A stretch of DNA of 64,000 nt, taken from assembly GCF_003034845.1 (NCBI RefSeq), contig NZ_PZKC01000001.1:267473-331472 (forward strand). The letters are read 5' to 3'. The position numbers and the translations under genes were made by a program. This DNA comes from Pseudothauera lacus (GTDB lineage: Bacteria; Pseudomonadota; Gammaproteobacteria; Burkholderiales; Rhodocyclaceae). Positions 14,889-34,443 of the stretch are shown piece by piece (position 1 is the stretch's first letter; every line of letters starts with the position of its first letter). A model generated the notes under the pieces. That model made no database searches. It was not told the DNA's origin and worked only from the letters and a program-made list of their open reading frames with translations.

Positions 14889-15434
14889 TCAGCCCGGCGG
14901 GCGCTGCAGGCAGTGCGGCACCACCTCCACGCTGCGCTCGCCGTCCCCCACCCATACGTGACCGTCCTGGATGGTGAACTGCAGGCGCATGCTGCGCGCA
15001 GTCAGACGGGCGAGTTCGGGCGCCGCCTCGGGCACCAGGTTGAGCACGGTGAGCTTGTCCTGGCGCGCCAGCTTGTCGCGCACGCCCTGCCACCAGATGT
15101 CCGCCGCGCGCCCGTAGCTGACGATCACCACGCGCTGCGAGCGCCCGCAGGCCTTGCGGATCCATTTCTCGTCGGGCTGGCCGACGTCGATCCAGCACAG
15201 GATGTCGCCGGTCAGGTCGCGCAGCCAGAGATCGGGCTCGTCGTCGACGCACAAACCCTTGCCGGAGGCCAGGCCTTCCTCGGCGAACAGCGCAAAGGCG
15301 AGCAGGCGCACCATCATGCGTTCGTCGGTCTCCGACGGGTGGCGCGCCAGGGTGAGGTTATGGGTGGCGTAGTAGTTGCGATCCATGTCGGCGATCTGCA
15401 ACTCGGCCTTGTAGATGGTTGCCTTGAGGGCCAT
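14889..15434 (-). CDS. yaeQ: YaeQ family protein.
   Basis: MALKATIYKAELQIADMDRNYY...LTLARHPSETDERMM... is a near-signature match to YaeQ. 181 aa. Confidence 0.85.
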   Translation of the reverse strand: MALKATIYKAELQIADMDRNYYATHNLTLARHPSETDERMMVRLLAFALFAEEGLASGKGLCVDDEPDLWLRDLTGDILCWIDVGQPDEKWIRKACGRSQRVVIVSYGRAADIWWQGVRDKLARQDKLTVLNLVPEAAPELARLTARSMRLQFTIQDGHVWVGDGERSVEVVPHCLQRPPG

Positions 15435-15493: not shown

Positions 15494-17038
15494 TCAGCCG
15501 CGGCCTGCAGCCCCGGCGATGCCCGGCTGCTGCGGTGCGTGCAGCGCCTCGATGAGCTGCCTGAGACTGTCCATCCGCTGCGCCCCTGCTCCGCCAAGCT
15601 TGTAGGCCTGGAGCGCGCTCTCCAGGCTTGCGAGCGCTTCCGGGAGCGCCTCGACCAGGCATGAATCGCAAGCTTGCCGACGCTGCATGAGCCCGGCCCT
15701 GGCCAGCAGCGCCATCCCCAGCGCCCGTTGCGCGTCGCCCCAGTCGACCGTCCGGCGCAGCAGGGCTGGTTCGGCGAGCAGCTCACGGTACAGGGCTATG
15801 CCCTCGTCAAGGTGGGCGATGGCACCGTCCGCGTCCGCGTCCGCGCCATCGCTCATTGCCCCTGCGCTGCTCAAGGCCCTGGCCAGCTCGCCATGCACGG
15901 CCAGCCAGCGCAGGGGGGCCTGCGCGCGCGCGGTGTGCTCGCCCGCGGCACGGAGCAGCCCGACGGCCTCGTCGAGATACGCAACCGCCTGTTCCCCGTG
16001 CACGCCACCGGCACCCTCCACGGCCGCGCTGCGCAAGACGGCCCCCAGCATGAAGCGGGTTTCCGCCAGCGCTTCGGGCGCGCCCGAACGGCTGCGCCCG
16101 GCCAGTGCCGTACGCAGCAATGGCCGGGCACCGCCAAGGTCGCCCCGCCAGGCCAGCAACACGCCGGCCTGATGCGCGACCGCCGCACCTTCATCCGGCG
16201 CCCAGCCGGACGGCCACTGTTCGATGAGCGCACGATAACGCTCACCGGCGCCATCGAACGCCCACGCCTCGTCGTGGAGCAGCGCGCGCACGTGGAGGGC
16301 ATTGGCGGCGCGCCAGCGGTAGCTCGCTGCCAGCCCGCCCAGCCCATCGCGCTCGGCGTGCTGCGCGGCGCGCTCGAAGAGCTGCAGCGCCTCGTCATGG
16401 CGGAGCATGGCAAGGAGCAGTTCGCCGTGCAGGCGCAGCACGGGGCTCGTCCGGGCTGGATCGGCAGCGGGGTCGCGCAAGGAATGGGCGAGCAGCCCTT
16501 GCGAAGCCGCAAGGGCCTCGTCGAACTGCCCGGCGGCGAGCGCCGCACCGACCAGCGCAGCTTCTGCCGCCACCGCGCTTGCCCGCGCCTGTCGATAGCC
16601 CGCAGCAGCATTGAGCAGCGCAAACTCCAGCCGCGTCGGCGCCATTTCCGCACCATCGCGCTGCACCGCCCCCTCCGGTATGGCTGCATCGGCAAGCGTC
16701 CTCAGCAGGGCGAACAGGGCAGCATCGCCGATATCTCCAAGCGCGCCGCCGACCTCTGCCAGGGTGCTCAGATCGCTCTCGGCCAGCGCCTCCCGTCCTT
16801 CGCGCGCGGCGCTGACGAGCTGCCGGAGCCGTACTGGATCGACGGGCAGGCGCTGCGTGTGATCGATCAGCCCTACGCTGACAGGGACGGCATCAACCTT
16901 CTCTTCAACGCCGGCAACAACGTCTTGAGTGCCTTGCGGCGCCACCCCGAGGCTGGCGAGAAACCACAGCACCAGGGCGGACAGCGCAATGGTCCACGCC
17001 ACTCCTCCGGCAACAAAGGCAAGCGAATTGAACTTCAT
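15494..17038 (-). CDS. Hypothetical membrane-anchored Ala/Leu-rich protein (514 aa), possibly TPR-like.
   Basis: N-terminal TM (FVAGGVAWTIALSALVLWFLASL), then a long Ala-rich helical domain. It is divergent from the PspA/flotillin operon promoter. Confidence 0.5.
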   Translation of the reverse strand: MKFNSLAFVAGGVAWTIALSALVLWFLASLGVAPQGTQDVVAGVEEKVDAVPVSVGLIDHTQRLPVDPVRLRQLVSAAREGREALAESDLSTLAEVGGALGDIGDAALFALLRTLADAAIPEGAVQRDGAEMAPTRLEFALLNAAAGYRQARASAVAAEAALVGAALAAGQFDEALAASQGLLAHSLRDPAADPARTSPVLRLHGELLLAMLRHDEALQLFERAAQHAERDGLGGLAASYRWRAANALHVRALLHDEAWAFDGAGERYRALIEQWPSGWAPDEGAAVAHQAGVLLAWRGDLGGARPLLRTALAGRSRSGAPEALAETRFMLGAVLRSAAVEGAGGVHGEQAVAYLDEAVGLLRAAGEHTARAQAPLRWLAVHGELARALSSAGAMSDGADADADGAIAHLDEGIALYRELLAEPALLRRTVDWGDAQRALGMALLARAGLMQRRQACDSCLVEALPEALASLESALQAYKLGGAGAQRMDSLRQLIEALHAPQQPGIAGAAGRG

Positions 17039-17282
17039 CGATCAAGCAGGACCTGTAAGGGAGCGCGCAGCTCCGGTCGAAAAAGATGCGCCCGCCGCAC
17101 ACACTGTCGCCCTTGCGGGCGGCGCCCGATCATCTCGCCGGCCCCCCACCCCTGCAGGCCATGGTCATTTCACGGCACCGATCCCGCATCCACGGGACGG
17201 CCGCAGAACGGCCCTGAAGAGAGATTCTTGCGCATGCGCTGCTGGCCACCGCAGACTCCGCTCGCAGGAGCGAAGAAAAGCT

Positions 17283-17311
17283 TTGACATTTTATGTCGCG
17301 AAGCATACATT
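17283..17311 (+). promoter_or_regulatory. Near-consensus sigma70 promoter, TTGACA-N17-TACATT.
   Basis: Read directly. About 38 bp upstream of the yjfI-like ATG (17349). RBS GAAGGAG at 17335-17341. Confidence 0.5.
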
Positions 17312-17348
17312 GCACATGTCATCGACACAACCCTTGAAGGAGTCGCGG

Positions 17349-17765
17349 ATGAAATCGCTGCAGGAACAGATCGCAGGCTTGGACGACGTGCTGAGTGCGC
17401 GCCTCGGTGGCACCGCCGTCAGCCTGCAACCCATCCCCGGCTCGGTGCCGGTGATTCAGGTTGTCATCGGCGGGCGCGAGGAGCTGCCCATCTTCATCAC
17501 CGCCTCGGAAACGCAGGTGCTGTGCATCTGCTATCTGTGGAGCGACGAGGAGGTGCGCGCCGACAAGCGCGCCGAGCTGCTCGAGACCCTGCTCGCCCTC
17601 AATCCGTCCATCCCGCTGTCGGCCTTCGGCCGCATCGACAAGCGCTTCGTGCTGTTCGGCGCGCTGGCCAGCGACGCCCGCGTCGAGGATGTCGCCCAGG
17701 ACGTCATCGCCCTCAGCGACAACGCCCTGGACGCCCTCGAAGCCCTCTCCGCCTACCTCGTCTGA
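17349..17765 (+). CDS. YjfI-like (DUF2170) protein.
   Basis: 138 aa. The internal LCICYLWSDEEV / FVLFGALAS pattern resembles E. coli YjfI. First gene after the promoter. Confidence 0.65.
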   Translation: MKSLQEQIAGLDDVLSARLGGTAVSLQPIPGSVPVIQVVIGGREELPIFITASETQVLCICYLWSDEEVRADKRAELLETLLALNPSIPLSAFGRIDKRFVLFGALASDARVEDVAQDVIALSDNALDALEALSAYLV

Positions 17766-17778
17766 AGGAGACATCACC

Positions 17779-18486
17779 ATGAGCGTGATTGGAAAGATCC
17801 TCACCCTGGTGCGCGGCAGCGCGCGTGAAATCGGCGAGAGCGTGGTCGATGCCAACGCCACCCGCATCTACGAACAGGAAATCGTCGACGCCCGCAACGC
17901 CATCATGAAGGCCAAGAGCGAGCTTACCGGCGTGATGGCCAAGGAAATGCAGAGCGCACGCGAGATCGAGCGCCTGCGCAAGGAAATGATCCGCCTCGAG
18001 AATCTCGCCGTCGAAGCGCTCGACAAGGGCGAGGACGCGCTTGCCGAGGAAGTCGCCGGCAAGGTCGCCGCCTGCGAGGCAGAACTCGAGGAGCAGAGTC
18101 GCGCCCACGCCAACTACGCGCTGCAGGTCGGCAAGCTCAAGGAGCTGATCAAGGCCGCCGAGGGCAAGGTGCGCGAGCATGAGCGCGAGGTGGCCATGGC
18201 ACGCACCACCGAGAGCGTCTACCGCGCCACCCGCTCGATCTCCGACAACATCGGTGCCACCGGCTCCAAGCTGGTCAGTGCGCGCGAATCGCTGGAGCGC
18301 ATCAAGCGCCGCCACGAGGACCTCGCCGACCGCATGGCCGCCGCCGAAGCGCTCGACAAGGAGACCAGCACCCGCGGGCTCGAACAGCGCCTCGCCGAAG
18401 CCGGCATCGGCGGCGACGCCGAGCGCCGCCGGGCAACCATGGAGCGCATCCGTGCGCGCCAGGCGGCCGCGCACAAGGACGCATGA
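17779..18486 (+). CDS. PspA/IM30-family protein (YjfJ-like).
   Basis: 235-aa coiled-coil protein. The C-terminal LAEAGIGG motif and overall pattern match E. coli YjfJ/PspA family. Confidence 0.85.
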   Translation: MSVIGKILTLVRGSAREIGESVVDANATRIYEQEIVDARNAIMKAKSELTGVMAKEMQSAREIERLRKEMIRLENLAVEALDKGEDALAEEVAGKVAACEAELEEQSRAHANYALQVGKLKELIKAAEGKVREHEREVAMARTTESVYRATRSISDNIGATGSKLVSARESLERIKRRHEDLADRMAAAEALDKETSTRGLEQRLAEAGIGGDAERRRATMERIRARQAAAHKDA

Positions 18487-18806
18487 AGACGACCGGCAAG
18501 CCGGCGCGCTGGAAGGACTCCGACGACGCACTGCGCGCCGTTCAGGTGGCCTTCGATGTCGAAGCCCGGGTTCTCGAGGCGGTGCGACGCGCCGCCTTCG
18601 AGAACAACCTGTCGATGCCGGATCAGGTGCGCAACCTGCTGGGGCTGCCGGTCACGCACCGCCCCAAGCGGCCGCGCCTGACCGTCTCGCTGACCCCTGC
18701 GGACTACCAGATGCTGGCCGCACGCTATGGCCTGCCGGCCGACGACCTGCTTGCCATCAAGGAACGCGCGGCCGGCGAGCTGATCGATTTCGCCGACGAT
18801 CAATGA
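18483..18806 (+). CDS. Hypothetical small protein (107 aa), translationally coupled to the pspA-like gene.
   Basis: ATGA overlap with the upstream stop. High GC3. No family recognised. Confidence 0.5.
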   Translation: MKTTGKPARWKDSDDALRAVQVAFDVEARVLEAVRRAAFENNLSMPDQVRNLLGLPVTHRPKRPRLTVSLTPADYQMLAARYGLPADDLLAIKERAAGELIDFADDQ

Positions 18807-21658: not shown

Positions 21659-21796
21659 GCCTTGCCGGCATGCTCCTGACCGCGCGGCTCACCGGGCCTG
21701 CCGGGCAGGGCGTGCCACGCCTGACGAACTTCTCGCACTGATCTCCAGCGCACGCTGACCCTGGCGGCCACCCGCGGGTGGCCGGGAGAACCCGAT

Positions 21797-24700
21797 ATGT
21801 CCGAGCACGCTCAAGGCCCCGACGCAACCGAGGCCCTGGTTGCCGAGAGCAGCAGTTACGAGCTGCTCAAGCGGCGACTGTCCGACCTGGGCGGTCATCT
21901 GCAACGCAAGACGCGGGCGCTCAACGACGCCCGCCTCGCCGAGTTCGGCCGTGCCGAGCAGGCGCTCATCGCGCGCACCCGCGCGCGCACCGAGAACAAC
22001 TGCATCGCCCGCGACCTGGTGCGCATCGGCGACGTGCTGCTGTTCGGCTACAACGTCTTCATCGGCCTGCGCAAGGAGACCGCGGTCGCCGATGTCTTCG
22101 GCCTGTATCGCCTCGGCGAGGACGGCGAGGGCGATCTCGAAGCGGTGGCGCTGGAGGGCAGCTTTCTCGACGACGCGCGCTTCACCGCCGATTTCCGCGA
22201 GCTCTATACCTACTACCGCCAGGCCAGCCTGATCCAGTTGCGGGTGCACCAGCACAAGCTGCTGGCGGCCTTCCAGATCGGCCAGCAGGCCACCGACCTG
22301 CGGGTGTTCCGCTGGAACATCGGGCCGGACGGCATGCTGAGCTACATCGACAACCGCGGCGAGCGCGACATCGCGCTGCCCGCGACCCACGACTTCGAGT
22401 GGACCCAGACCACCCGCGAGAACCATGTCGGCGGTCGTCACCCGCACATCAACATTCTCGACACCGTCTTCGTCGAGACCGTCGGCGGCGATCTCACGAT
22501 CAAGATCGAGAACAACACCGAGAGCGGGCTGGGCATCTACTCCGAGCCGGTCGAGGACAAGAGCCAGTCGCTCACCGACGCCGAGGTCGCCTACGCGCGC
22601 ATCGGTTCGCTGATCCTGCTGCGCATCCGCCCCTACCGCGAGCGCGACGAGCGCTACCTGGTGTTCAACACCCGCACCCTCAGCGCCACCCGCATCGACG
22701 CCATCGGACGCTCGTGCATCCAGTTGCCCGAAGACCACGGCATCATCTTTCCGGGCGGCTACTATCTGCAGTCCGGCGAAACCAAACGCTTCGACCTGCC
22801 CGCCGAGATGCGCGACGGCCTGCGCTTCAAGCGCATGCAGCGCTCGCCCAACGGCGAGGACGTGCTCTACGTCTTCTACCAGCCCGGGCTTGGCCACTAC
22901 GCGCTGTTCTCCTACAACCTGATCGAGAAGTCGCTGTCCACGCCGATTCTGTGCAATGGCTATGCGCGCTTCGACGACGGGCGCATGCTGGTCTTCCAGG
23001 CCGAGGGGCCGGAGCCGACCCGCAACCATCCGATGCAGCTGTGGCAGACGCCGTTTGCCAGCGACGAGCATGCCGCCGCCCACCAGGAGGTCCAGGGCTT
23101 TTTCGGCCGCATCGGCAATCCCGAACTGGTACGCGGCATTGCCGAGCTGACCGGCATCACCCGCGCGGTCGCCGAGCAGACCCCCACGCGCAATGCCTAC
23201 GAAGCCCTCATCCGCCAGTGCGGGCGGGCGCTCGATGCCTACTTCTGGCTCGATTCGGACGAGGCCGGCAAGCTCGACGAAGACATCCGCGCCATCATGG
23301 AAGGCGCGCGCCACACCCTCGACGAATTCGAGAAGATCGAGAGCATCCGCCGCGACACCGCCCAGGCACTGAGCGAGGCCGAGCTGCGCCAGCGCGAGCT
23401 GATGACCGACATCGCCAGCATGATGTGGCACGCGCCCGACGACTTCGTGCGGGCGCTCGGTCGCCTGCGCGAGCAGCGCGGCCGCCTGCAGGCCATGCGC
23501 GAGCTGCGCTACGCCGATCTGACGCGCATCGGCGAGCTCGAAGCCACCGTCGACGAGGAGCAGGGGCGGGTCTCCGAGCGCGCGCTGAACTTCCTTGCCG
23601 ACGAGCACGCCTTCGACGGCTACCGCAAGTCGCTCGACGAGATCGCCGCCGCCCTGCCGCACGCCACCAACAGCACGGAGATCGCCGAGCAGGTCAAGGC
23701 GCTCGACAGCACCGGTGCCGGCCTCGACCTGCTCACCGAACAACTGGGCAACCTGCCGGGCGGCGATGCCGTCATCCGCACCCGCATCCTCGACGGCATC
23801 GGCGGCGTGTATGCCGAGGTCAACCGCCTGCGCGCCGAGGCCCGCAGCCGCGCCCGCGCGCTTGGCAGCGTCGAGGCCGCGGCCGAGTTCGGCGCGCAGA
23901 TCCAGCTCTTCGGACAGGCCGTCGAGAACGCGCTGGAACTGGCCGATACGCCGGAAAAGTGCGACGACGCCCTCACCCGCCTGCTCGGCCAGCTCGAGGA
24001 CATCGAAGCCCGCTTCGCCGACCAGGACGCCTTCATCGAGACCCTGGCCAACAAGCGCGAGTCGGTGGTCGAAGCGGTGGCGGCACGCCGCCAGACCCTC
24101 ACCGAGGCCCGCCAGCGCCGCAGCCAGGCGCTGGTCGATGCCGCCTCGCGCGTACTCGACGGCGTTCCGCGCCGGGTCGCCCAGTTCAACGATCTGCCGC
24201 AGGTGCACAGCTATTTCGCCGGTGATCCGCTGCTCGCCAAGCTGCGCAGCCAGATCGACGAACTGCGCGCGCTGGGCGCCAACGTCGCCGCCGACGATCT
24301 CGACACCCGCCTGCGTGCTGCGCGCGACCAGGCGGTGCGTGCGGTACGCGACCGCCGCGAGCTCATCGCCGAGGACGGCAACACCCTGCGCTTTGGCCGC
24401 CACGCCTTCACCGTCAACCGTCAGACGCTCGACCTCACCCTGGTCCCGCGGCAGGGCGGGCTGGCCTACCACCTCACCGGCACCGACTACTTCGCGCCGC
24501 TCGACGACCCCCGGCTGGACACCCTCAAGGCCTGGTGGGACGTGCCGCTGGTGTCGGAGAGCGACACCCTCTACCGCGCCGAATACCTCGCCGGCACGTT
24601 GCTGGCCGACGCCCTCGACGGGCATGGCGAGCAGGACTGGGCCCAACTGCAGGCGCTCGCCGCGGCCGAGGATGGCCAGCCGCTTGCCGATCTGGTCCGG

Positions 24701-26995
24701 CGCAGCAGCGCGAGCCGCTACCAGGAAGGCTATCAGCGCGGCGTTCATGACCACGATGCCACCCTCATCCTGCAGGCCCTGATCGGCATGCAGGCCGGCG
24801 CGCAACTGCTCGCCCACGGGCCGCAGGCCCGCGCCCTGGCCTTCTGCTGGTGGCACTTCGGCGCCTTCGAGGACGAGCGTGCGAGCCTGCTCCGGCTGGC
24901 CCGCGCGGCGGTGCAGATGAATGCGCTCTTCGCCCACCGCGAGGCGCTGGCGCGCGCCGAACACGACGCCGCGCAGACGCTCGCTGTTTTCGCGCCAAAG
25001 TTCGGCTTTGCCGACGATGCCGCGCTGGTCGGCGAGGCCGCCCAGTATCTCGTCCGCCAGCTCGCCGAGCCGCGCGGCGCCGAGGCCTGGGTTATCTCCG
25101 GTGCCGGCGCCACCCTCGCCGAAGACCTGCAGCGCCAGCTCGAGCGTCACGGCCAGCTCGCCACCCTGCACGCCGACCTCGCGGCCGCGGCGCCGCCCGA
25201 GCGCTGGCGGCTCGCCCGCCAATGGACGGCCGCCTTCGCCGCTGGGCAGGACGGCGCGCTGGCCTGGGAGGCCGACGCCGCCACCGCCTTGTTGAGCGAC
25301 GGCGAACGCCAGCGCGTCAACGTCGAGCTCGACGCGGTGGTCGAGGGTCTGCGCGGCGAACACCCGCGCCTTGCCGACGGCCGCCTCACCCTCAACCTCA
25401 ACGACTTCTGGCAACGCCTGCGCCGTCATCGCAGCGTCCAGGTGCCGGCCTTCGAACGCCTGCAGGCGCTGCGCCTGGAGATCGTCGACAGCGAGAAACG
25501 CCGCCTGCATCTCGACCAGTTCCGCGCCCGTCCGCTGTCGAGCTTTGTGCGCAACCGGCTCATCGACGAGGTCTATCTGCCCATCATCGGCAACAACCTC
25601 GCGCGCCAGATCGGCGCCGCCGGCGATGCCAACCGCAGCGACCGCTCCGGTCTCCTGCTGCTGATCTCGCCGCCCGGCTACGGCAAGACCACGCTGATGG
25701 AGTATGTTGCCGACCGCCTCGGCATGATCTTCGTGCGCATCAACTGCCCCGCGCTCGGCCATGACGTCACCGCCATCGACCCGGCCGGCGCCACCCACAG
25801 TGCCGCCCGCCAGGAGCTGGAAAAGCTCAACCTCGGCCTGGCGATGGGCAACAACGTCATGCTCTACCTGGACGACATCCAGCACACCAATCCGGAGTTC
25901 CTGCAGAAGTTCATCGCGCTGGCCGACGGTACCCGCCGCATCGAGGCGGTGCGCAACGGCGAACCCTGGACCGCCGACCTCCGTGGCAAGCGCTTCGCGG
26001 TGGTGATGGCGGGTAACCCCTACACCGAGTCCGGCGACGTCTTCCGCATTCCCGACATGCTCGCCAACCGCGCCGACATCTACAACCTCGGCGACGTGCT
26101 GGCCGGGCGTGAAGACCTCTTCGCGCTGTCCTACATCGAGAACTGCCTGACCTCCAACCCGCTGCTGCTGCCGCTGTCGTCCCGCGATCCGGCCGACGTG
26201 CACCGTCTGGTGCGCATGGCCGAAGGCGAGGACATCGCGGACAGCGCCTTCAGCCACGGATACAGCACGGCCGAACTCAACGAACTGGCCAATCTCGTCC
26301 GCCGCCTGTTCCGTGCCCGCGACCTGCTGCTCAAGGTCAACCTCGCCTACATCGAATCCGCCGCGCAGGACGACGCCTACCGCAACGAGCCGCCCTTCAA
26401 GCTCCAGGGCAGCTACCGCAACATGACCAAGCTCGCCACTGCCATCACTCCCTTGATGCGCGACGACGAGCTCGACGCCCTGTTGCGCGACCACTACCGC
26501 GGCGAAGCGCAGACGCTGACCAGCGGTGCCGAGGAGAACCTCCTCAAGCTCGCCGACCTGCTCGGCAGCCAGACCCCGGACGAAACCGCGCGCTGGCAGG
26601 AGATCAAGGAAGAGTTCGTGCGCCGTCGCAAGCTGGGCGGCGACGATGCCGACGGCAGCACCCGCATCGCCGGCACCCTGATCGACATCGCCCGTGCGGT
26701 CGAAGGGCTGCGCCAGGGTCCGGCGATGGAAGACAGCCTGCGCGCGGGACTGGAGGAAATCAGCAAGGGGCTGCGCGCGCTGCAACCGCGCATTGAGGTC
26801 GCAGCGCCGGATACGAGCGAATTCGCCACCGCTCTGCGCGAGATGCACGAAACCTTCGACAAGGTGCTGGTGCCGCTGGTTACCGCCACCTATCGCAAGA
26901 TGCGCATGGACCACTCCATGTGGGAGGACATGAAGCGCATGAGTGGTCTGATCCAGCGTATGGAACGACTCATCGCCCCACCCGCCGGGGAATGA
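21797..26995 (+). CDS. Giant (1732 aa) protein. Uncharacterised N-terminal ~1270 aa, then a C-terminal AAA+ ATPase module of the MoxR/dynein-like (AAA_5) type.
   Basis: Walker A LLLISPPGYGKTTL. Walker B VMLYLDDIQH. Sensor-1 FAVVMAGNPY. Last gene of the pspA-like/flotillin operon. Uniform coding-like codon usage over 5.2 kb. Confidence 0.85.
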   Translation: MSEHAQGPDATEALVAESSSYELLKRRLSDLGGHLQRKTRALNDARLAEFGRAEQALIARTRARTENNCIARDLVRIGDVLLFGYNVFIGLRKETAVADVFGLYRLGEDGEGDLEAVALEGSFLDDARFTADFRELYTYYRQASLIQLRVHQHKLLAAFQIGQQATDLRVFRWNIGPDGMLSYIDNRGERDIALPATHDFEWTQTTRENHVGGRHPHINILDTVFVETVGGDLTIKIENNTESGLGIYSEPVEDKSQSLTDAEVAYARIGSLILLRIRPYRERDERYLVFNTRTLSATRIDAIGRSCIQLPEDHGIIFPGGYYLQSGETKRFDLPAEMRDGLRFKRMQRSPNGEDVLYVFYQPGLGHYALFSYNLIEKSLSTPILCNGYARFDDGRMLVFQAEGPEPTRNHPMQLWQTPFASDEHAAAHQEVQGFFGRIGNPELVRGIAELTGITRAVAEQTPTRNAYEALIRQCGRALDAYFWLDSDEAGKLDEDIRAIMEGARHTLDEFEKIESIRRDTAQALSEAELRQRELMTDIASMMWHAPDDFVRALGRLREQRGRLQAMRELRYADLTRIGELEATVDEEQGRVSERALNFLADEHAFDGYRKSLDEIAAALPHATNSTEIAEQVKALDSTGAGLDLLTEQLGNLPGGDAVIRTRILDGIGGVYAEVNRLRAEARSRARALGSVEAAAEFGAQIQLFGQAVENALELADTPEKCDDALTRLLGQLEDIEARFADQDAFIETLANKRESVVEAVAARRQTLTEARQRRSQALVDAASRVLDGVPRRVAQFNDLPQVHSYFAGDPLLAKLRSQIDELRALGANVAADDLDTRLRAARDQAVRAVRDRRELIAEDGNTLRFGRHAFTVNRQTLDLTLVPRQGGLAYHLTGTDYFAPLDDPRLDTLKAWWDVPLVSESDTLYRAEYLAGTLLADALDGHGEQDWAQLQALAAAEDGQPLADLVRRSSASRYQEGYQRGVHDHDATLILQALIGMQAGAQLLAHGPQARALAFCWWHFGAFEDERASLLRLARAAVQMNALFAHREALARAEHDAAQTLAVFAPKFGFADDAALVGEAAQYLVRQLAEPRGAEAWVISGAGATLAEDLQRQLERHGQLATLHADLAAAAPPERWRLARQWTAAFAAGQDGALAWEADAATALLSDGERQRVNVELDAVVEGLRGEHPRLADGRLTLNLNDFWQRLRRHRSVQVPAFERLQALRLEIVDSEKRRLHLDQFRARPLSSFVRNRLIDEVYLPIIGNNLARQIGAAGDANRSDRSGLLLLISPPGYGKTTLMEYVADRLGMIFVRINCPALGHDVTAIDPAGATHSAARQELEKLNLGLAMGNNVMLYLDDIQHTNPEFLQKFIALADGTRRIEAVRNGEPWTADLRGKRFAVVMAGNPYTESGDVFRIPDMLANRADIYNLGDVLAGREDLFALSYIENCLTSNPLLLPLSSRDPADVHRLVRMAEGEDIADSAFSHGYSTAELNELANLVRRLFRARDLLLKVNLAYIESAAQDDAYRNEPPFKLQGSYRNMTKLATAITPLMRDDELDALLRDHYRGEAQTLTSGAEENLLKLADLLGSQTPDETARWQEIKEEFVRRRKLGGDDADGSTRIAGTLIDIARAVEGLRQGPAMEDSLRAGLEEISKGLRALQPRIEVAAPDTSEFATALREMHETFDKVLVPLVTATYRKMRMDHSMWEDMKRMSGLIQRMERLIAPPAGE

Positions 26996-26998
26996 TCC

Positions 26999-28780
26999 TC
27001 AGAACGGCCAGATCAGCGGAATCACAGCCACCGCCACCACCCACATGAGCAGGTTGAGGGGGATGCCGATGCGCAGGAAGTCGGTGAAGCGGTAGCCCCC
27101 GGCGTTGTACACGAAGGTGTTGGTCTGGTAGCCGATCGGGGTGGCGAAGCTCGCACTGGCGGCGAACATCACCGCCACCACGAAGGGGCGCGGATCGACG
27201 CCGAGCTGCAGCGCCAGGCCGATGGCGATCGGCGTGATCAGCACCGCCACGGCGTTGTTCGACAACACCTCGGTGAGCACCGAGGTGAACAGGTAGATGA
27301 AGGCCAGCATCATCAGCGGCGTGGCCCACGGCGCGGCAGTGGTCACGCTGCCGACGATCAGGCTCACCAGGCCGACCTTGTCCATGGCGATGCTGATCGC
27401 CAGCATGCCGAAGATCAGCGACAGGATCTTCCAGTCCACGGCCTTGTAGGCATCCTCGACGTCCAGGCAGTTGCTCACCAGCACCACCGCGGCAGCGATC
27501 AGCGCGAGGCCTTCGATGGGCATCACCTTCAGCGCGGCGAGCAGCATCACCGACAGCGTGGCGACGATGGCGATCGGCGCCTTGTCGCGCCGGTAGGCGC
27601 GTTCCTGCACGTCATTGAGGCTGATCAGGTCGCCGTTGTCGGCAAAGCGCTTGATCTGCCCGGCGGTGCCTTCGACCAGCATCACGTCGCCGAACTGAAG
27701 CTGGAAGTCGTCGAGGTTGCTCTGGATGTTCTCGTCCTGGCGGTGCACCGCCAGCACCGCGATGCCGTAGCGCGCGGTGAGGTCGAGGTCGCGCATCGGG
27801 CGGTGCACATAGCGCGAGTTGCGCCCGACGATGGCCTCCACCAGCATGACGTCGCGCATCGCTATGGTCTCGAAGGCATGACCGCGCGAAAACTCGAGCT
27901 TGCCCGATTCACGCAGCTCCACCACGTCGCGCACGGTGGTGTGCAGCACCAGGCGGTCGCCGGCTTCCAGCAAGGTGGTGTTGGGCGGCTCGGTGATCAC
28001 CTCGTCGCCGCGGAACAGCTTCAGCACCTGCAGGCCGGCCTTGCCGTTGAGGTTGGCGTCGGCGATGCTCCTCCCGGCCATCGGCGAATCCCGCGGCACC
28101 AGCAGCTCGCTCATGAAGGTGCGCGCGAGGTTGGGACGCAGGGTGCGCGACAGGGTGTCGCGCGCCGGCAGCAGGCGCTGACCGAACAGCATGATGAAGA
28201 GGAAGCCGGTGGTGGCCAGCGCCAGCCCGGCCAGGGTGATCTCGAACATCCCGAAGGGTTCCAGACCCTGCTTGCGCGCCACGCCATCGACGAGAATGTT
28301 GGTCGAGGTGCCGATCATGGTCAGCGTGCCGCCGAGGATCGTCGCGTAGGAGAGCGGGATCAGCAGCTTGGAGGGCAAGGTATCCGAGCGCCGCGCCAGG
28401 GCGATCGCCACCGGCGTGAGGATGACCACCACCGGGGTGTTGTTGATGAAGGTGGAGATCAGGATCGCCACCAGCATCAGCCCGCCCAGCAGGCGCACCG
28501 GGCTGTCACCGACCAGGCGCGCCAGCCAGTTGCCGAGCACCTCGACGCAGCCGGTGCGCTCCAGCGCGGCGGAAAGCACGAACATGCAGGCGATGGTCAG
28601 CGGCGCCGGGTTGGAGAGTACCGACAGCACCTCGGCGGGGGTCAGCAACTGGGCCGCCAGCAACGCGGCCACGGCAGCGCCGGCCACCACGTCGGGGCTG
28701 CGCTTTTCGCGCAGGAAAGCCACCAGCACGGCGACTATCACCAGCACGACAAAAGGCAGCGCGTAGGAATCGGGGAGCAT
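26999..28780 (-). CDS. SLC13/DASS-family permease with two central TrkA-C domains.
   Basis: About 593 aa. Hydrophobic N- and C-terminal halves flank TrkA-C-like segments (GKAGLQVLKLFRGDEV...). Confidence 0.8.
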   Translation of the reverse strand: MLPDSYALPFVVLVIVAVLVAFLREKRSPDVVAGAAVAALLAAQLLTPAEVLSVLSNPAPLTIACMFVLSAALERTGCVEVLGNWLARLVGDSPVRLLGGLMLVAILISTFINNTPVVVILTPVAIALARRSDTLPSKLLIPLSYATILGGTLTMIGTSTNILVDGVARKQGLEPFGMFEITLAGLALATTGFLFIMLFGQRLLPARDTLSRTLRPNLARTFMSELLVPRDSPMAGRSIADANLNGKAGLQVLKLFRGDEVITEPPNTTLLEAGDRLVLHTTVRDVVELRESGKLEFSRGHAFETIAMRDVMLVEAIVGRNSRYVHRPMRDLDLTARYGIAVLAVHRQDENIQSNLDDFQLQFGDVMLVEGTAGQIKRFADNGDLISLNDVQERAYRRDKAPIAIVATLSVMLLAALKVMPIEGLALIAAAVVLVSNCLDVEDAYKAVDWKILSLIFGMLAISIAMDKVGLVSLIVGSVTTAAPWATPLMMLAFIYLFTSVLTEVLSNNAVAVLITPIAIGLALQLGVDPRPFVVAVMFAASASFATPIGYQTNTFVYNAGGYRFTDFLRIGIPLNLLMWVVAVAVIPLIWPF

Positions 28781-28895
28781 CGGGGGCAGGCATGTCCGTT
28801 GGCGCCGCCACGGTGCGGCGCACAAAAGATAGCCTCAGCCCTTTATACAGTCCAAGACTGTTTATTGATTTCCTTATAACTGAGAACTCTATTCT

Positions 28896-31115
28896 TCAGG
28901 ATGCTTCACCGCCAGGTGGACGGGCCTTGAAGGCCTGCAGGTAGTCGCCCATCTCCGCGGCCGGCAATGGGCGGCTGATCAGGTAACCCTGGATGGCATC
29001 GCAGCCGAAGCTGCGCAGCATGGCGGCCTGGCCGTCTTCCTCGACCCCCTCGGCAACCACCTCCAGCCCCAGCCCGTGTCCGAGGGCGATGACCGCCTTG
29101 ACGATGGAGGCGCTGCCGGTGCTGCTGAGCATGCCGCGGACGAAGGACATATCGACTTTCAGGCGGTCCACGTCGATCTGCTGCAGATAGGACAGCGAGG
29201 AGTAGCCGGTGCCGAAGTCGTCGATCGACAGCCCGATACCCTGCCCCTTGAGTTCGGCAAGCGCCTGCAGGGCCTGCGCGCGCTCGGCAAGCAGCACGCT
29301 CTCGGTGATCTCCACTTCAAGCAGCGTTGCCGGGATGCCGCTGGCCGTCAGCGCTGCGCCCACCGCGCTGGCGACCTGCCCGCGGCTGAACTGTACGGCG
29401 GAGACATTCACCGCCACCCGCGGCGCCTGCAAGCCGGCATCGAGCCAGGCGCGCACCTGCCGGCAGGCTTCGTGGATCACCCACTCGCCGAGCGGCACGA
29501 TGAGACCGCTGTCTTCGGCCAGTGGAATGAACTCCGCCGGAGAGACGCTGCCAAGCTGCGGGTGCTGCCAGCGCGCCAGTGCCTCCAGGCCGACCAGGGC
29601 ACCGCTGCAGAGGTCGACCTGGGGCTGGTAATGGAGGGCCAGCTGCCCCTCTGCCAGGGCCTCGCGCAGGCCCGCCTCCAGACGCAGGCGGCCGCGCGCA
29701 CGCGCGGTGATCTCCGGGGCAAAGAAGCGCAGACCGCCCCGCCCCTGGGCCTTGGCCTCGCGCAATGCCGCCTCGGCACTGCTCTGCAGGGTTTCGACGC
29801 TGCGCCCGTCGGCCGGATAGAGGGCCACGCCGACACTGGCGCCGACATACACCGTATGCCCGTCGATGGCGAAAGGTACCGCCAGCTCGTCGATCATGCG
29901 CTGCGCCAGCAGGTCCGGCGCCAGCCCCTCGCCGAGCTGGACGACGATGGCGAACTCGTCGCCGCCGATGCGGGCAATGGCGTCACCGTCGGGAACCAGC
30001 GCCTTCAGGCGCTTGCCGATCCCGCCAAGCAGGGTGTCTCCACAGCGATGGCCGAAGCTCTCGTTGATGGTCGTGAAGTTGTCCACATCCACGTACAGCA
30101 GCGCCAGCCCGCCACTGTCGTTGCGCTCGGCGAGCATCAGTTCGTGGGCGAGGATCTCGCCGAAGAGGACACGGTTGGGGAGGCCGGTAAGGGCGTCGCG
30201 ATAGGTCAGGAAGCGGTACTTCTCCTCGCTGACCTGCAGCATCGCGGTACGCTGGGCGAGCAGATCCTCAAGGAAGCGACGCAGGCGGGAAAGCTCCAGA
30301 TGGGTGCGGATGCGTGCCCGTACCTCATCGATGTCGAAGGGCTTGCTGATGAAGTCCGCCGCCCCCAGTTCAAAGCCGCGCACCTTGTCGGCCGGGGCGT
30401 CGATGACAGTGACGAAGAGCACCGGAATACGGTTGCCGCCCACCGTCTCCTTGATGCGGCGGCAGACTTCGTAGCCGTCCATCTCCGGCATCACCACGTC
30501 GAGGAGGACCAGATCCGGCGGCGTCTCACCATGAACGATCTCCAGCGCCCGCGCTCCGGAGCGCGCCACCATGATGCGGTACTCGTCCTTGAGTACCTCG
30601 ATCAGGCCATGGATGTTCTCGGGGACGTCGTCCACCACCAGCAGCGCCGGCGGCTCGCCCGGACGCAGGCGGGCGCTGACGTCGAGCAGCAGCGGATGGG
30701 AGCGGTAGCGGCGCAGCTCCAGCAGGTTGCGCATGCGCGCCTTGAGCAGGCCGGGATTGACCGGCTTGGTGATGTAGTCGGCAACGCCCAGCTGCAGACC
30801 GCGCGCCTCGTCGGCGGCATCGTCGAGGGCGGTGACGAAGATCACCGGGATGTCGGCGGTGGCCGCATCCACCTTCAGCGCCGAGAGCACCGAGTAGCCG
30901 TCCATGCCGGGCATGCGGATGTCGAGCAGGATGAGCTCGGGCGGCGGCACGCGGCGCGCCAGTTCCAGCGCCTTCTCGCCGCTGGTGGCGGCGGAGAGGG
31001 CGAACTCGTCGCCGAGGATGCCCTTCAGCGCATGCAGGTTCTCGGGCACGTCGTCGACGATCAGCACCCGCGGACGCTGGCCCCTGTCCTCCTGTTGTGC
31101 GTACTCGCTCATCAC
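28896..31115 (-). CDS. Response regulator with two REC domains plus GGDEF and EAL domains.
   Basis: Two (L/V)IVDD...D(I/V)(R/V)MP REC cores. [10 protein letters not shown] (GGDEF). EAL motifs ([15 protein letters not shown]). ATGA-coupled to the upstream hybrid kinase. Confidence 0.85.
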
Positions 31116-34100
31116 TGTTGCTCGGCCACCGCCTTTTCCAGTTGATCGAGGATCGCCAGCGCGGTGTCGATCTCGAACACCTCGACATGCGCGGCGACCC
31201 GCTCCACCTTCTCTGCCAGTGGGCTGCCGGCCAGCGCCACCCGCACGCGCTCGAGCAGGCCCTCGGCAGCGCCCAGATCATATTGCAGGGACTCTGCGAG
31301 GCTGCGCAAGTCCGCGCGCAAGGTCGCTGCATCGACGGCCACGGGCGCCGCCTCGGGTGCCGCGGCGCGCATCCCGCCGAGCGCCTCGATGCCCCCGAGC
31401 AGTGCCGCCAGACGACTGTCGATATCGGCCAGCAAGGCCTCCGCGGGCAGGCGTCCGTGGCGCAACAGGGCGTCGACTTCGGCCAGGCGGTCGAACAGCT
31501 CGCGCGCGCCGATATTGCCGGCGACGCCTTTCAGCGCATGGCAGTATTCCTCTGCCGCCTGCGTGCTGCCGCTGGCGACGAGGCGGCGCAGTTCGGCCGC
31601 CGCGCCGCCGTAGTGCTCGGCAAAGCGGCGCAACTGGCGGCGGTAGGCGTCGACATTGCCACCGATGCGCCGCACCCCCTCGCCGGTATCGACACCGGCG
31701 AGCTGGCGCAGGTCATCAGGCAAGGGCGCCAGCACCTGGCGCGGAAGGTGCTGTGCCCCCCCGCCCTTGACCCAGCGCGCCAGTGCGGCGATCAGGCGGT
31801 CCGGGGCGACCGGCTTGGTGACGTGGTCGTTCATCCCTGCCGCCGCGCTGCTTTGCGCATCGCTGGCCATCGCCAGCGCGGTCATGGCGATGATCGGCAA
31901 GGTGGCGAGATGGCGCCCCTGTGGTTGCTGGCCAAGCGCGCGGATGCGGCGGGCGGCCTCCAGGCCATCCATCACCGGCATCTGGATGTCCATCAGCACC
32001 GCGTCGTAGGGCCGCTGGGTGACCATGGCAAGGGCCTCCTCGCCATTTGCGGCCTCCTCCACCTCGATGCCTTCACTGCGTAAGAGCTCGCAGGCAAACT
32101 CGCGGTTGATGGCGTTGTCCTCGACCAGCAGCACCCGCGTACCGGCCAGTTCGCCGCCGCCCAGAGTGGCCGGCACGGCCTTGCGGCGGGCGCCCTCGCT
32201 GCCGAGGATGCGCCCGCGGCCGAGTACCGACAGCAAGGTGTCGAGAATCGTCGACGGCGACACCGGCTTGACCAGGAAGCCATCCACACCGGCCTGGTCG
32301 GCGAGACGGATGACGTCCTCACGCCCATAGGCGGTAACCATGACGATGCGCGGCTTGATCGTCAGCGCTGCGTCGCCGCGGATGCGCCGGGCCACCTCGT
32401 CACCGTTCATGCCCGGCATCCGCCAGTCGAGCAGCACCAGATCCGGGCTTCCCGCGGGCGCCGCATGCAAGGCCGCGAGGGCATCGCTGCCGCTGGCCGC
32501 AGTGCTGACCTCGACATGGAAGTAACGCAGCATCTCGGCAAGGATCTCGCGCGCGGCCTCGTTGTCGTCGACCACCAGCACCCGCACCCCCTGCAGCAGC
32601 GGGCCGGCCTGCTCCACCAGCTGGCGCTGGCGGGCCTGCGCGTTGGCGGCAATGCGCAGCGGCACGGTACACCGCATGGTGGTACCCATGCCCGGTGCCG
32701 AGGTGGCGATCCACATCCGCCCGCCCATCAGTTCGACCAGATTGCGGCTGATCGACAATCCCAGGCCGGTGCCGCCGAAACGGCGGGTGGTGCTCTGATC
32801 GGCCTGGGTGAACTTCTCGAAGAGGTGCTGCTGGACCTCCTCGGACATGCCGATGCCGGTGTCGCGCACGCTCACCTCCAGCGTCATGCTCTCTTCGCCG
32901 ATGTCGATGCCCTGGAAGGACAGCTCCACCTCGCCGTGCTCGGTAAACTTCACTGCATTGCCGCACAGGTTCAGCAGCACCTGCCCGAGGCGCAGCGGAT
33001 CACCGATCAGGCGCGCCGGAATCGCCGCATCGTAGCGAATGAGGAACTCGACATCCTTGCGCTCGGCCTGGAAGCTCACCGCATCGGCAAGCTGTTCGAG
33101 CACCCCGTCGAGGCCGAACTCGACCGCCTCGATCTCCAGCTTGCCGGCCTCGATCTTCGACAGGTCGAGGATGTCGTTGATGATGCCGAGCAGCGCATGG
33201 GCAGCCCCCTGCGCCTTGGCGAGCTGGTTGTGCACGGCCGGCGGCAACTCGGTGCGCAGGGCCAGGTAGAGCATGCCGAGGATGGCATTCATCGGCGTGC
33301 GGATCTCGTGACTCATGTTGGCGAGGAAGTCGCTCTTTACCCGCGTCAGGCGTTCGGCCTCCTCCTTGGCGGCGAGCAGCTCGCCGGTGCGCGCAGCAAC
33401 CTGATGCTCGAGATTGGCGCGCTCGGCCTCCAGTTCGCGCGTGGTCGCCAGCAGCGCGGCGGTACGCTGGGCAACCACGCGCCGCAGCAGATACACCACC
33501 CCGCCGAGCAGCAGCAGCGAGGCCCCCAGCGCCGCCAGCGCGCGCCCCACCCAGGACGGCACCAGCACCTCCGGCGGCAGCGCCATGCTGCGCTTGAGGG
33601 CGTCGTAATAGAGGGAATCGGGATCATTGCGCCAGGCCGTGAGATGCCCGTCGATGCGCTTCAGCAGATCACCGTTGCGGCCGATGCCGGTGGCAAAGTA
33701 GAGGCTGCTGGGAAGAAACACCAGCGGCGTCTCCTGCAGGCGGTAGCGGCTGCCATTGTGGGCGGCGAAGAAGCTGTTGCTGACCACCGCGTCAGCCTCG
33801 CCTGCCACCACCGCCTCGTAGGCCTCGGTCAATGATTGCACCAGCACCGGGTGGTAACCGTAATCGCCCGATGCCATCAGCTGGGCGAAGAAGCGCTGCT
33901 GGACGCCGCCCTCCAGCATCGCCACACGGCGCCCGGCGAGATTGGCCAGCGCGGTGATGCGCAGATCCGGAGCGCTATAGACCTGCGACCAGCTGTTGGC
34001 CACCGAAACGGTATGGAAGTCGTAGCGCTGGCTGCGCTCGGCGGTGAAGGCGACATCCGGCATGAGGTCGAGGTGCGCCAGTTCGAGCTTTTCGAGACAC

Positions 34101-34351
34101 TCCGACCAGCGGCAGGGAACGTACTGCAGCCGCCAGCCTTCGAGACGGGCGATTTCTTCGAGCAGTTCGATGAAAAGACCGGCCGGACGACCGTCGGCGC
34201 GGGTATAGACCTTCGGGGCATTCTCATACAGGCCCACCAGCACCACCCGCTGCGCCTCCCCGGTGCCGGAATACGCCCGCCAGCCCAGCACTGCAGCCAG
34301 CGCCAGGGCGGCACTCAACAGGGCAAGAATCAACGGCCGCGCTAGCTGCAT
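31112..34351 (-). CDS. Hybrid sensor histidine kinase: periplasmic family-3 solute-binding domain, TM, HisKA, HATPase_c, two REC domains and a C-terminal HPt.
   Basis: H-box [10 protein letters not shown]-boxes. Two REC cores (VLVVDDN..., VLLVEDN...). C-terminal HALKG HPt motif. Start taken at the Met preceding the signal peptide. Confidence 0.85.
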
Positions 34352-34425
34352 GCGAAATCGCCCGACAAAGCGGCGCAATGCACCGGATAACGCATTTATA
34401 CTTTTTTTTGGCGACGCTCGCGACC

Positions 34426-34443
34426 CCAATGGCACGCCATTGG
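34426..34443. promoter_or_regulatory. Perfect 8-2-8 palindrome CCAATGGC-AC-GCCATTGG ~75 bp upstream of the hybrid kinase start.
   Basis: Read directly. Lies between the LysR gene 3' end and the HK operon start. A T8 run sits just upstream on the plus strand. Confidence 0.35.

Follow-up and report, generated by a model that had tools for sequence, protein, structure and literature searches.

The last gene of a six-gene operon in Pseudothauera lacus encodes a 1732-residue AAA+ ATPase that is the ortholog of Pseudomonas aeruginosa BacE and adds a further member to a family that is on record but uncharacterised. On balance we favour reading this betaproteobacterial BacE as a soluble AAA+ protein of the cytoplasm whose dedicated task is the remodelling of flotillin/NfeD assemblies, with or without PspA. 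The operon would then be a membrane-maintenance module, consisting of a flotillin (SPFH) scaffold and an NfeD-like partner and, here, a DUF2170 chaperone-like protein and PspA. The stretch of DNA analysed, referred to below as the window, comprises 64,000 nucleotides and has a GC content of 68%; its relevant features are collected in Table 1.

The ATPase gene begins with an ATG codon, 7 nt upstream of which lies the sequence GGGAGA, and its GC content by codon position (0.72/0.44/0.90) is typical of real genes. An equally long antisense ORF (21689..26914) was rejected as a shadow ORF, since it failed the codon-position GC filter run on all ORFs. More than 7132 homologous protein clusters were found, the best 120 listed all being full length; this number, together with the strength of the DUF3686 match (Table 1), places the gene far beyond chance. 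The reading frame described in the earlier note is thus real, and the Walker A, Walker B and sensor-1 motifs quoted there are all present in its translation.

Table 1. Features of the operon, of the ATPase and of the adjoining gene (window coordinates; residues numbered within the ATPase)
Feature	Residues	Nucleotides	Strand	Basis or remark
Sigma-70-like promoter candidate, TTGACA-17 nt-TACATT		17283..17311	+	38 nt upstream of first operon gene
DUF2170/YjfI-like (CesT/Tir-type chaperone fold), BacA-like, 138 aa		17349..17765	+	Pfam DUF2170, E=3e-26
PspA/IM30 (ESCRT-III-like), BacB-like, 235 aa		17779..18486	+	Pfam PF04012, E=1.3e-30
Conserved 107-aa ORF		18483..18806	+	start overlaps PspA stop by 4 nt
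NfeD-like (YqiJ/YuaF-type) membrane protein, BacC-like, 210 aa		18856..19488	+	position, size, topology
Flotillin-type SPFH protein, BacD/PaFlo3-like, 703 aa		19547..21658	+	Band_7, hydropathy, synteny
DUF3686-DUF7902-AAA+ ATPase, BacE/PA3728 ortholog, 1732 aa		21797..26995	+	last operon gene
DUF3686 (PF12458)	35-483	21899..23245	+	Pfam E=1.3e-198, profile positions 2-448 of 448
Helical rod, helices of 20-58 residues	442-858	23120..24370	+	AlphaFold model; contains DUF7902
DUF7902 (PF25472)	604-687	23606-23857	+	Pfam E=6.9e-23, 81 bits (cut-off 26)
Small beta domain and all-helical domain	863-902 and 905-1240	24383..25516	+	model, without family match
AAA+ module, most conserved region	1241-1600	25517..26596	+	model and ortholog alignment
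Walker A, SPPGYGKTTL	1291-1300	25667-25696	+	
Walker B, LYLDDIQH	1356-1363	25862-25885	+	
Sensor-1, VVMAGNPY	1402-1409	26000-26023	+	
Variable helical C-terminal tail	1601-1732	26597..26992	+	poorly conserved
Convergent CitMHS/TrkA_C transporter gene		26999-28825	-	ends 3 nt past ATPase stop

The N-terminal ~1270 residues had been thought to hold no recognisable module, which is wrong, as Pfam matches both DUF3686 and DUF7902 there. Both are domains of unknown function, however, and a fusion of domains with a named function is not seen. The beta-rich region and long helical stretches that had been suspected by eye are borne out by the AlphaFold model as a beta-propeller and a helical rod. Within the DUF3686 region the model has an N-terminal helix and a six- or seven-bladed propeller (strands aa 71–401), and the ortholog alignment contains many invariant charged residues in this domain. 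Model confidence is very high between the rod and the AAA+ module (aa 863–1240), with 10-residue block means mostly above 90. In Foldseek searches with a 1000-residue N-terminal model, the propeller matched those of prolyl-oligopeptidase, BtuG and DCAF1, while the top matches also included a nuclear-pore ring component, Elp1 and, lower down, clathrin heavy chain, with TM-scores below 0.1. No protocoatomer kinship is claimed, since the matches to coat-type proteins are globally insignificant and the remainder are generic propellers.

Both NCBI/PGAP and the Pfam description of DUF3686 use the terms ‘DNA repair ATPase’ or ‘ATPase involved in DNA repair’. That the protein is an SMC/Rad50/SbcC-like repair enzyme working on chromosomal DNA is nevertheless hardly credible. 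NCBIfam does give very weak matches to SMC (E=0.56) and Rad50 (E=0.69), and RecJ is encoded three genes downstream of BacE in P. aeruginosa; but the two matches are far under threshold and confined to the helical, coiled-coil-type sequence of the rod, the ATPase has an AAA+ fold where SMC proteins have an ABC-type head, a DNA-binding domain was not detected, and the conserved neighbour genes all encode membrane proteins. A literature search found nothing tying DUF3686/PF12458 to DNA repair, or ‘DNA repair ATPase’ to flotillin. The repair reading was rejected on the sub-threshold matches and the gene context, and the label is unsupported; it probably stems from coiled-coil cross-matches to the SbcC-type COG ‘ATPase involved in DNA repair’.

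The AAA+ module carries the key residues K1297/T1298 (Walker A), D1359-D1360 (Walker B) and N1407 (sensor-1), together with an Arg-finger candidate, R1425, and a candidate sensor-2 Arg, R1541 in QGSYRNM; the lid contains a long insert. According to the DSSP strings of the AlphaFold model, read without superposition, ~110 residues separate the Arg finger from the candidate sensor-2, and the same strings indicate a beta-hairpin before sensor-1 (aa 1381–1394) and an interrupted helix 2 (aa 1317–1334), broken by coil at aa 1321–1334. The family motifs SPPGYGKTT, DDIQH, MAGNPYTE and IPDMLANRAD are all present; MAGNPYTE and F[KR]IPDMLA served as the search patterns for related loci, where their conservation is by construction. 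Walker A is identical, and DDIQH present, in 80/80 orthologs. Both Walker motifs are thus kept in the orthologs, and the Asp-Asp Walker B singled out in the earlier note is an invariant trait of the family. In the C-terminal tail the mean top-residue frequency is 0.22–0.51 per 40-residue block, and at most 0.3 beyond aa 1640.

The invariant DDIQH also bears on an alternative in which the protein acts not as a motor but as a scaffold or switch governed by nucleotide. Owing to its Walker B it would bind ATP but hydrolyse it very slowly, and an ATP-controlled coat of propeller and rod would nucleate or stabilise flotillin/PspA assemblies, in a manner comparable to ORC/Cdc6 or STAND proteins. Walker B motifs of the form hhhhDD characterise switches or loaders of the STAND, IstB and SF3 types, and that of the window ATPase resembles them; the weak Pfam matches to AAA_22 and AAA_16, and the propeller-plus-helical proteins among the top Foldseek matches (TM-scores below 0.1), fit the same picture. 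We consider it unlikely, because the coat-protein similarity is insignificant as a global fold, because an Asp is able to serve as a catalytic base and could still do so here, and because the ortholog alignment shows no variation at the sensor-1 Asn, at the Arg-finger position or at the candidate sensor-2 Arg, which suggests a complete hydrolytic site.

The assignment of the module to the MoxR/AAA_5 type, made originally from its motifs, holds in part. Its closest solved structures are the MoxR proteins NorQ and CbbQ, with a small margin over other AAA+ clades, and the AAA_5 profile passes its cut-off of 22 with 24.4 bits; against this, AAA (29.6) and AAA_22 (28.7) also pass and score higher, and the Walker B is Asp-Asp. 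AAA_3 scores 14.6, under its cut-off of 27, and the AAA_22 and AAA_16 matches are weak. PDB sequence searches with the whole protein and with a 31-sequence AAA+ profile returned only P-loop-level matches (Rix7/NVL/p97/RuvB), which are uninformative as to clade.

The ATPase closes an operon in the order DUF2170, PspA, 107-aa ORF, NfeD-like, flotillin and ATPase. The sigma-70-like candidate upstream is weak (1 found against 0.7 expected), and no match to the sigma-54 pattern TGGCAC-N5-TTGCW with up to two mismatches occurs in 17040–17349. The first gene is preceded by GAAGGAG; its counterpart BacA has been described (PMC10948618). For the upstream genes the earlier note had named IM30, NfeD and flotillin, of which IM30/PspA is confirmed by its PF04012 match. 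The NfeD-like protein fits in position, size and topology, with about three TM segments and a soluble C-terminal domain by hydropathy, but matches no Pfam or NCBIfam profile; its name leans on position, topology and earlier descriptions (PMC11237479; PMC2636767). The flotillin has an N-terminal hydrophobic anchor (aa 1–26), an SPFH domain and a long Ala/Glu-rich, coiled-coil-like helical region. Its identification stands on a Band_7 match obtained when aa 1–230 were scanned alone (E=4.2e-10), whereas at full length it has no Pfam, NCBIfam or PDB sequence match and the Flot match at its C-terminus (E=0.016) is weak and under threshold. The 107-aa protein has no match in Pfam or NCBIfam.

Among related loci, a flotillin gene lies directly upstream of the ATPase gene in 70/70, and an NfeD-like homolog upstream of flotillin in 66/67. 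PspA is found on the same strand in 30/66, a DUF2170 homolog in 33/66, a homolog of the 107-aa ORF between PspA and NfeD in 12/66, and a PLD-family gene (BacF) after the ATPase in 15/71; the BacF query has no match in the window. No further conserved gene family accompanies the operon members and PLD among 80 loci. In every locus examined the ATPase is thus linked to flotillin, whereas PspA need not be present, and the partner first proposed, a flotillin/NfeD/IM30 assembly, agrees with this synteny in its flotillin and NfeD parts and less so for IM30. Another reading makes the ATPase a canonical chaperone of the MoxR type, which would mature an unrelated enzyme complex or load a cofactor into it, its adjacency to flotillin serving localisation only. 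NorQ and CbbQ are its best structural neighbours and many members are named ‘MoxR-like ATPase’ by JGI, but this is improbable in view of the strict flotillin synteny. In addition, a VWA/MIDAS partner gene is absent from the operon, from the window neighbours (Pfam) and from the conserved genes of the 80 loci; the Walker B is DD and not DE(I/V)N; and MoxR proteins are about 300 aa long, while 1240 extra residues are conserved here.

The family is present in at least 592 species genomes, including those of the opportunistic pathogens P. aeruginosa, Stenotrophomonas maltophilia and Proteus mirabilis. Its distribution across phyla is patchy, and the ATPases of Actinomycetota and Proteobacteria are about 45–50% identical, a combination that suggests horizontal transfer. 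The module is also found on the megaplasmid pQBR103. Such a spread, this plasmid carriage and the PLD-family gene of 15/71 loci might befit an anti-phage or abortive-infection system that senses perturbation of the membrane. We regard this as very improbable and rejected it on the PADLOC, phage and plasmid searches: none of the six proteins matches PADLOC-DB v2, where the best hit (E=0.005) reflects the P-loop only and the neighbour proteins give only coiled-coil noise, and no match occurs in 50,697 phage records, while the 13 records matched among 72,556 from plasmids are for the most part those of megaplasmids or chromids. The surroundings in the window are ordinary metabolic, transport and signalling genes.

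In the favoured reading, of BacE as a remodeller of flotillin/NfeD assemblies, the MoxR-like AAA+ modules would assemble into a ring from which the helical rod of each subunit projects its N-terminal beta-propeller. The propeller may dock on flotillin/NfeD, and on PspA where present, on the side of the cytoplasmic membrane that faces the cell interior. When the envelope is under stress, the flotillin cage or the PspA polymer would be assembled, taken apart or remodelled, driven by the binding of ATP and by its hydrolysis, which the Asp-Asp Walker B probably keeps slow. The action of Vps4 on ESCRT-III, or of FtsH inside HflK/C cages, would be a functional analogue.

Bacterial flotillins and PspA have been studied widely for their part in organising and repairing membranes, and we know of no ATP-driven partner for them. 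More tentatively, BacE-type ATPases could represent a distinct membrane-remodelling class, in which a MoxR-derived AAA+ ring with propeller-tipped helical arms builds up or strips away flotillin cages and also polymers of PspA/ESCRT-III, as a counterpart of Vps4 and of coat disassembly, with the obligate Asp-Asp Walker B tuning hydrolysis. If so, this would be the first dedicated energy-consuming regulator of bacterial flotillins. The points made on the label, the flotillin linkage and the Walker B correct an annotation spread through thousands of genomes. They concern a family for which each locus examined shows the tie to flotillin, and an operon that earlier work had connected with virulence and the formation of biofilms, and they supply concrete mutants and partners for the study of BacE-type ATPases.

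The nearest known system is the bacABCDEF ‘biofilm-associated cluster’ of P. aeruginosa, linked to biofilm and virulence (Mace 2008, PMC2587700; Wallart 2024, PMC10948618), in which BacE is co-transcribed and co-regulated with BacB-D. The window ATPase and PA3728/BacE are collinear end to end (865/1742 identities, 50%, with 2% gaps), and BacE (PA3728/PA14_16190) has the same Pfam architecture and the same DDIQH, GYGKTT and GNPYTE motifs; P0130 was equated with PA14_16190 by its locus and primer-encoded peptides. The order DUF2170, PspA, NfeD-like, flotillin, ATPase is common to both operons, but in that of the window PspA and NfeD are separated by the additional 107-aa gene, a convergent transporter gene takes the place of the PLD-like BacF, and a sigma-70-like candidate only is seen where a sigma-54 (-24/-12) promoter has been proposed for bacA. 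Ravi et al. 2024 (PMC11237479) reported the identical architecture and operon in a computational, purely comparative study, and predicted that they act in the membrane dynamics of PspA and flotillin. Outside the scope of that study, and quantified here, are the DD Walker B, the AAA+ clade and the strict flotillin linkage.

With the MoxR family (NorQ, CbbQ, RavA; Pfam AAA_5/AAA_3) the window ATPase shares the NP context of sensor-1 and the xxRxD context of the Arg finger and, going by the DSSP strings, may share the pre-sensor-1 hairpin and the interrupted helix 2. It differs in having Asp-Asp where MoxR proteins have DE(I/V)N, in lacking a VWA partner, and in its ~1240 extra N-terminal and ~130 extra C-terminal residues. 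The Vps4/ESCRT-III system has a similar parts list, namely an ESCRT-III-family polymer (PspA), an SPFH protein, a beta-propeller module and an AAA+ enzyme with an N-terminal targeting domain, and archaeal Vps4 neighbourhoods contain SPFH and beta-propeller proteins (Makarova 2024, PMC10936438). Vps4, however, belongs to another AAA+ clade; the window ATPase has no Pfam match to an MIT domain, lacks the aromatic-hydrophobic-Gly motif of pore loop 1 (the loop after strand 2 reads PALGHDVTAIDPAGATHS) and has its propeller fused on, and in the related loci it is flotillin that is always present, PspA being optional (30/66). In HflK/C-FtsH, QmcA/YbbK-YbbJ and FloA-NfeD, an SPFH scaffold is likewise co-encoded with an AAA+ enzyme, an NfeD partner or both (PMC13086221). 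FtsH is a membrane-anchored AAA+ protease of the classical clade, whereas the window ATPase is soluble, has no protease domain and is partnered with an SPFH protein of the flotillin (SPFH2) subfamily.

The ATPase encoded by the last gene of the operon belongs to a family that is already catalogued, its architecture and operon having been published and its P. aeruginosa member named, and that is functionally uncharacterised; a literature search turned up neither biochemistry nor structural studies for any member. Precisely the same operon was described by Ravi et al. (PMC11237479), who suggested ESCRT-like sub-membrane dynamics. A search seeded with a Pseudomonas ortholog led to a 1746-aa P. 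aeruginosa protein, P0130 (3222 member sequences), whose locus reads DUF2170–PspA–213 aa–688 aa–P0130–PLDc_2–YaeQ–RecJ–LasB. These genes correspond to PA3732 through PA3724 and thus to the operon that Wallart et al. 2024 (PMC10948618) studied as bacABCDEF. Published RT-PCR primers for PA14_16190 encode the peptides TENNCIA and LIKVMDR, both of which occur in P0130; given this and the gene order, P0130 is therefore BacE (PA3728). The window ATPase, 50% identical to BacE over 1742 aligned columns, is almost certainly its ortholog.

In P. aeruginosa the ATPase is co-expressed with its operon neighbours: bacE is co-transcribed with bacA–D and bacF, and BacE rises about 9-fold in a bacA mutant, along with BacB–D and BacF. 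In PMC8190622, PA3728 appears under the name ‘ATPase’ among genes with recurrent mutations in cystic-fibrosis isolates. The bacA and bacB phenotypes concern biofilm, rhamnolipid, swarming and virulence; deletion of the flotillin PaFlo3/BacD has marginal effects only. Nothing supports the label ‘DNA repair ATPase’: SMC/Rad50 matches are sub-threshold and involve the helical rod only (E=0.56–0.69), the ATPase fold is AAA+, the conserved neighbours are all membrane proteins, and no DNA-binding domain was detected in the ATPase. The name was most likely inherited from the SbcC-type COG so called, through coiled-coil cross-matches.

The 1732-residue reading frame picked out in the earlier note is a real gene; its start, Pfam matches and codon-position GC (0.72/0.44/0.90 at positions 1/2/3, the pattern that real genes show in this window of 68% GC) agree, and the Walker A, Walker B and sensor-1 motifs are all found as quoted there. 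An equally long antisense ORF does not pass the codon-position GC filter; it is a shadow ORF. The N-terminal 1270 residues had been taken to lack any recognisable module; Pfam detects two there, DUF3686 and DUF7902, both domains of unknown function. The domain layout was drawn from two AlphaFold2 models built on 60-sequence alignments, covering residues 1–1000 (mean pLDDT 75) and 841–1732 (mean pLDDT 81). In Foldseek searches the predicted beta-rich domain groups with seven-bladed-type propellers (prolyl oligopeptidase, BtuG, DCAF1 WD40). Kinship to the propeller-plus-helical nuclear-pore ring component, Elp1 and clathrin was not relied on, global TM-scores being below 0.1.

Features of the window, of the ATPase (aa) and of related loci
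Feature	Position	Strand	Remark
416-aa ORF	13638-14888	+	good codon-position GC; no family match
YaeQ family	14889-15434	-	upstream of operon
514-aa ORF	15494-17038	-	good codon-position GC; single weak TPR_12 match
Promoter region of the operon	17020-17349	+	sigma-70-type candidate
DUF2170/YjfI-like	17349-17765	+	DUF2170 E=3e-26
PspA/IM30	17779-18486	+	E=1e-30
107-aa ORF, conserved	18483-18806	+	overlaps PspA stop codon by 4 nt
NfeD-like membrane protein, 210 aa	18856-19488	+	YqiJ/YuaF topology
Flotillin, 703 aa	19547-21658	+	Band_7 on N-terminus
Antisense ORF	21689-26914	-	rejected
ATPase	21797-26995	+	ATG after GGGAGA
N-terminal helix	aa 19-50		AlphaFold2
DUF3686	aa 35-483		Pfam E=1.3e-198, whole domain length
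Beta-rich domain, ~26 strands	aa 71-401		AlphaFold2
Rod of 20-58-residue helices	aa 442-858		AlphaFold2; includes DUF7902
DUF7902	aa 604-687		Pfam E=7e-23
Small beta domain	aa 863-902		AlphaFold2
All-helical domain	aa 905-1240		AlphaFold2, confident prediction
AAA+ module	aa 1241-1600		AlphaFold2
Walker A	aa 1291-1300		SPPGYGKTTL
Conserved coil	aa 1321-1334		predicted
Walker B	aa 1356-1363		LYLDDIQH
Beta-hairpin	aa 1381-1394		predicted
Sensor-1	aa 1402-1409		VVMAGNPY
Helical tail, variable	C-terminal to AAA+ module		AlphaFold2
Response-regulator-GGDEF-EAL protein (739 aa) and hybrid histidine kinase (1107 aa)	28896-34435	-	downstream of operon
Lower-GC segment	62001-64000		GC 0.61
Zinc-ribbon protein	L002 9427-9975		between flotillin and ATPase
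PLD-like (BacF homolog)	L002 15193-15885		after ATPase
TelA	L038 15900-16985		downstream
YaeQ family, Pseudomonas loci	L082 14059-14598		same strand, downstream; also L019, L022, L025, L032, L034
Flotillin-ATPase module, pQBR103	L081, NC_009444.1 85425-104614		megaplasmid

Pfam leaves the class of the AAA+ module ambiguous, with AAA (29.6 bits), AAA_22 (28.7) and AAA_5 (24.4) all above their cut-offs, and PDB sequence searches gave matches confined to the P-loop. The structures closest to the modelled module belong to the MoxR family (NorQ, TM 0.5–0.58; CbbQ, 0.43–0.45; Foldseek, target-normalised). AAA_5-type, the earlier assignment, is therefore kept as the best available class, by a narrow margin. 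MoxR is a member of the pre-sensor-insert superclade. Judged from secondary-structure strings of the model rather than superpositions, a predicted beta-hairpin preceding sensor-1, a conserved coil breaking helix 2, and a long insert between the putative Arg-finger position R1425 (IPDMLANRAD) and the candidate sensor-2 R1541 (QGSYRNM) would fit that superclade. An aromatic pore-loop motif is not present in the module.

Conservation was assessed in 80 orthologs from representative genomes (Beta- and Gammaproteobacteria, Myxococcota, Actinomycetota, one Clostridia MAG and one Acidobacteriota MAG), 44–67% identical to the window ATPase. MAGNPYTE and F[KR]IPDMLA are conserved by construction, because both served as retrieval patterns; conservation of the Walker motifs is independent of this. 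Walker A is SPPGYGKTT and the Walker B region (V/C/T)(M/L/V)L(Y/M)(L/V/I)DDIQH(T/L) in 80/80. Conservation across 78 full-length sequences is highest in the AAA+ module, and sensor-1 N1407, R1425 and R1541 are invariant. The exceptionless Asp-Asp pair is thus a selected hallmark of the family and not a degenerate site. The ATPase has no membrane-spanning hydrophobic segment (19-residue Kyte–Doolittle maximum 1.42); hydropathy gives a single N-terminal anchor for the flotillin and about three such segments for the NfeD-like protein. The analysis shows the ATPase to be soluble and of AAA+ type; its nucleotide site is complete and invariant, and its propeller and rod domains are large and conserved.

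Its gene is the sixth and last of a co-directional, tightly spaced series, and 3 nt past its stop lies the end of a convergent CitMHS/TrkA_C transporter gene. Full-length flotillin matches nothing in Pfam or NCBIfam even at E<=10, and the P. aeruginosa ortholog likewise has no precomputed Pfam match; the first 230 residues scanned alone match Band_7 (E=4e-10), and C-terminal Flot gives E=0.016. The failure probably reflects the HMMER composition-bias filter acting on the long Ala/Glu-rich helical region, and long-coiled-coil SPFH proteins may be systematically missed by automated annotation. The 107-aa ORF, for which no mention was found in published descriptions of the operon, has no match in Pfam, NCBIfam or PADLOC. 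Its homologs occupy the same position in betaproteobacterial loci (55–67% identity) and a few gammaproteobacterial loci (32–46%); in one, L033, the homolog lies downstream of the ATPase. PADLOC defence models match none of the operon proteins. A weak sigma-70-like candidate promoter (near-consensus TTGACA-17-TACATT, placed 38 nt ahead of the DUF2170 gene) is the sole match in 10.5 kb, with 0.7 expected, and no sigma-54 -24/-12 element was found in the promoter region. For P. aeruginosa bacA, in contrast, a sigma-54 site has been proposed, a hint that the module is not regulated alike in the two cases.

Elsewhere in the window, the 514-aa and 416-aa ORFs sit between the operon and hemerythrin and MFS genes. 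The YaeQ-family gene, on the opposite strand from the operon, has counterparts near the operon in Pseudomonas loci too; this proximity may reflect coincidence or a loose association. The GGDEF-EAL protein and the hybrid kinase (SBP_bac_3 sensor, two receiver domains, Hpt domain) form a c-di-GMP signalling pair without evident link to the operon. GC falls at the window's end from an average of about 0.68.

The upstream flotillin/NfeD/IM30 assembly, proposed earlier as the partner, is well supported by gene neighbourhoods. In the best 80 of at least 592 matching loci (a sample of the closer members; counts take in only loci with enough flanking DNA), flotillin lies directly upstream of the ATPase on the same strand in 70/70 (median gap 241 nt) and an NfeD-like gene upstream of flotillin in 66/67; PspA occurs in 30/66, DUF2170 in 33/66 and the 107-aa ORF in 12/66. 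Since flotillin is universal in these loci while PspA is found in only some of them, the primary partner is more likely to be flotillin/NfeD. The ATPase probably functions with flotillin. Optional genes in other lineages are a zinc-ribbon protein (10/70, some Burkholderiales), a PLD-like gene (15/71) and TelA (11/68, including Xanthomonadales). Members sit almost entirely on chromosomes: of 72,556 plasmid records 13 carry one, mostly megaplasmids or chromids, and the phage records searched gave no match. In the Pseudomonas megaplasmid pQBR103 (425 kb) a PspA/rhomboid/DUF2491/DUF350/DUF1190/glutathionylspermidine-synthase cluster is joined to the module, uniting two PspA operon types kept separate in Ravi et al. 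(PMC11237479).

Tentatively, the AAA+ modules would assemble into a ring, with propellers on helical arms that dock, on the cytoplasmic side, to assemblies of flotillin/NfeD (or PspA), and nucleotide turnover would assemble, disassemble or remodel these scaffolds during envelope stress; such a specific remodeller mechanism is somewhat short of an even chance. Two features, the MoxR-like fold and the lack of a canonical pore loop, favour a remodeller that grips a segment of its partner over one that unfolds it processively. With its Asp-Asp Walker B the ATPase may instead run a slow, switch-like nucleotide cycle, which is the main rival. A more ambitious reading, in which bacterial flotillin cages have in this ATPase a dedicated regulator driven by ATP, is less likely than not. 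The analogues proposed for a scaffold remodeller are Vps4 with ESCRT-III, FtsH with HflK/C, and archaeal Vps4 neighbourhoods, which likewise hold SPFH and propeller proteins (PMC10936438). In B. subtilis, recruitment of PspA is documented to depend on an SPFH protein (PMC8581546).
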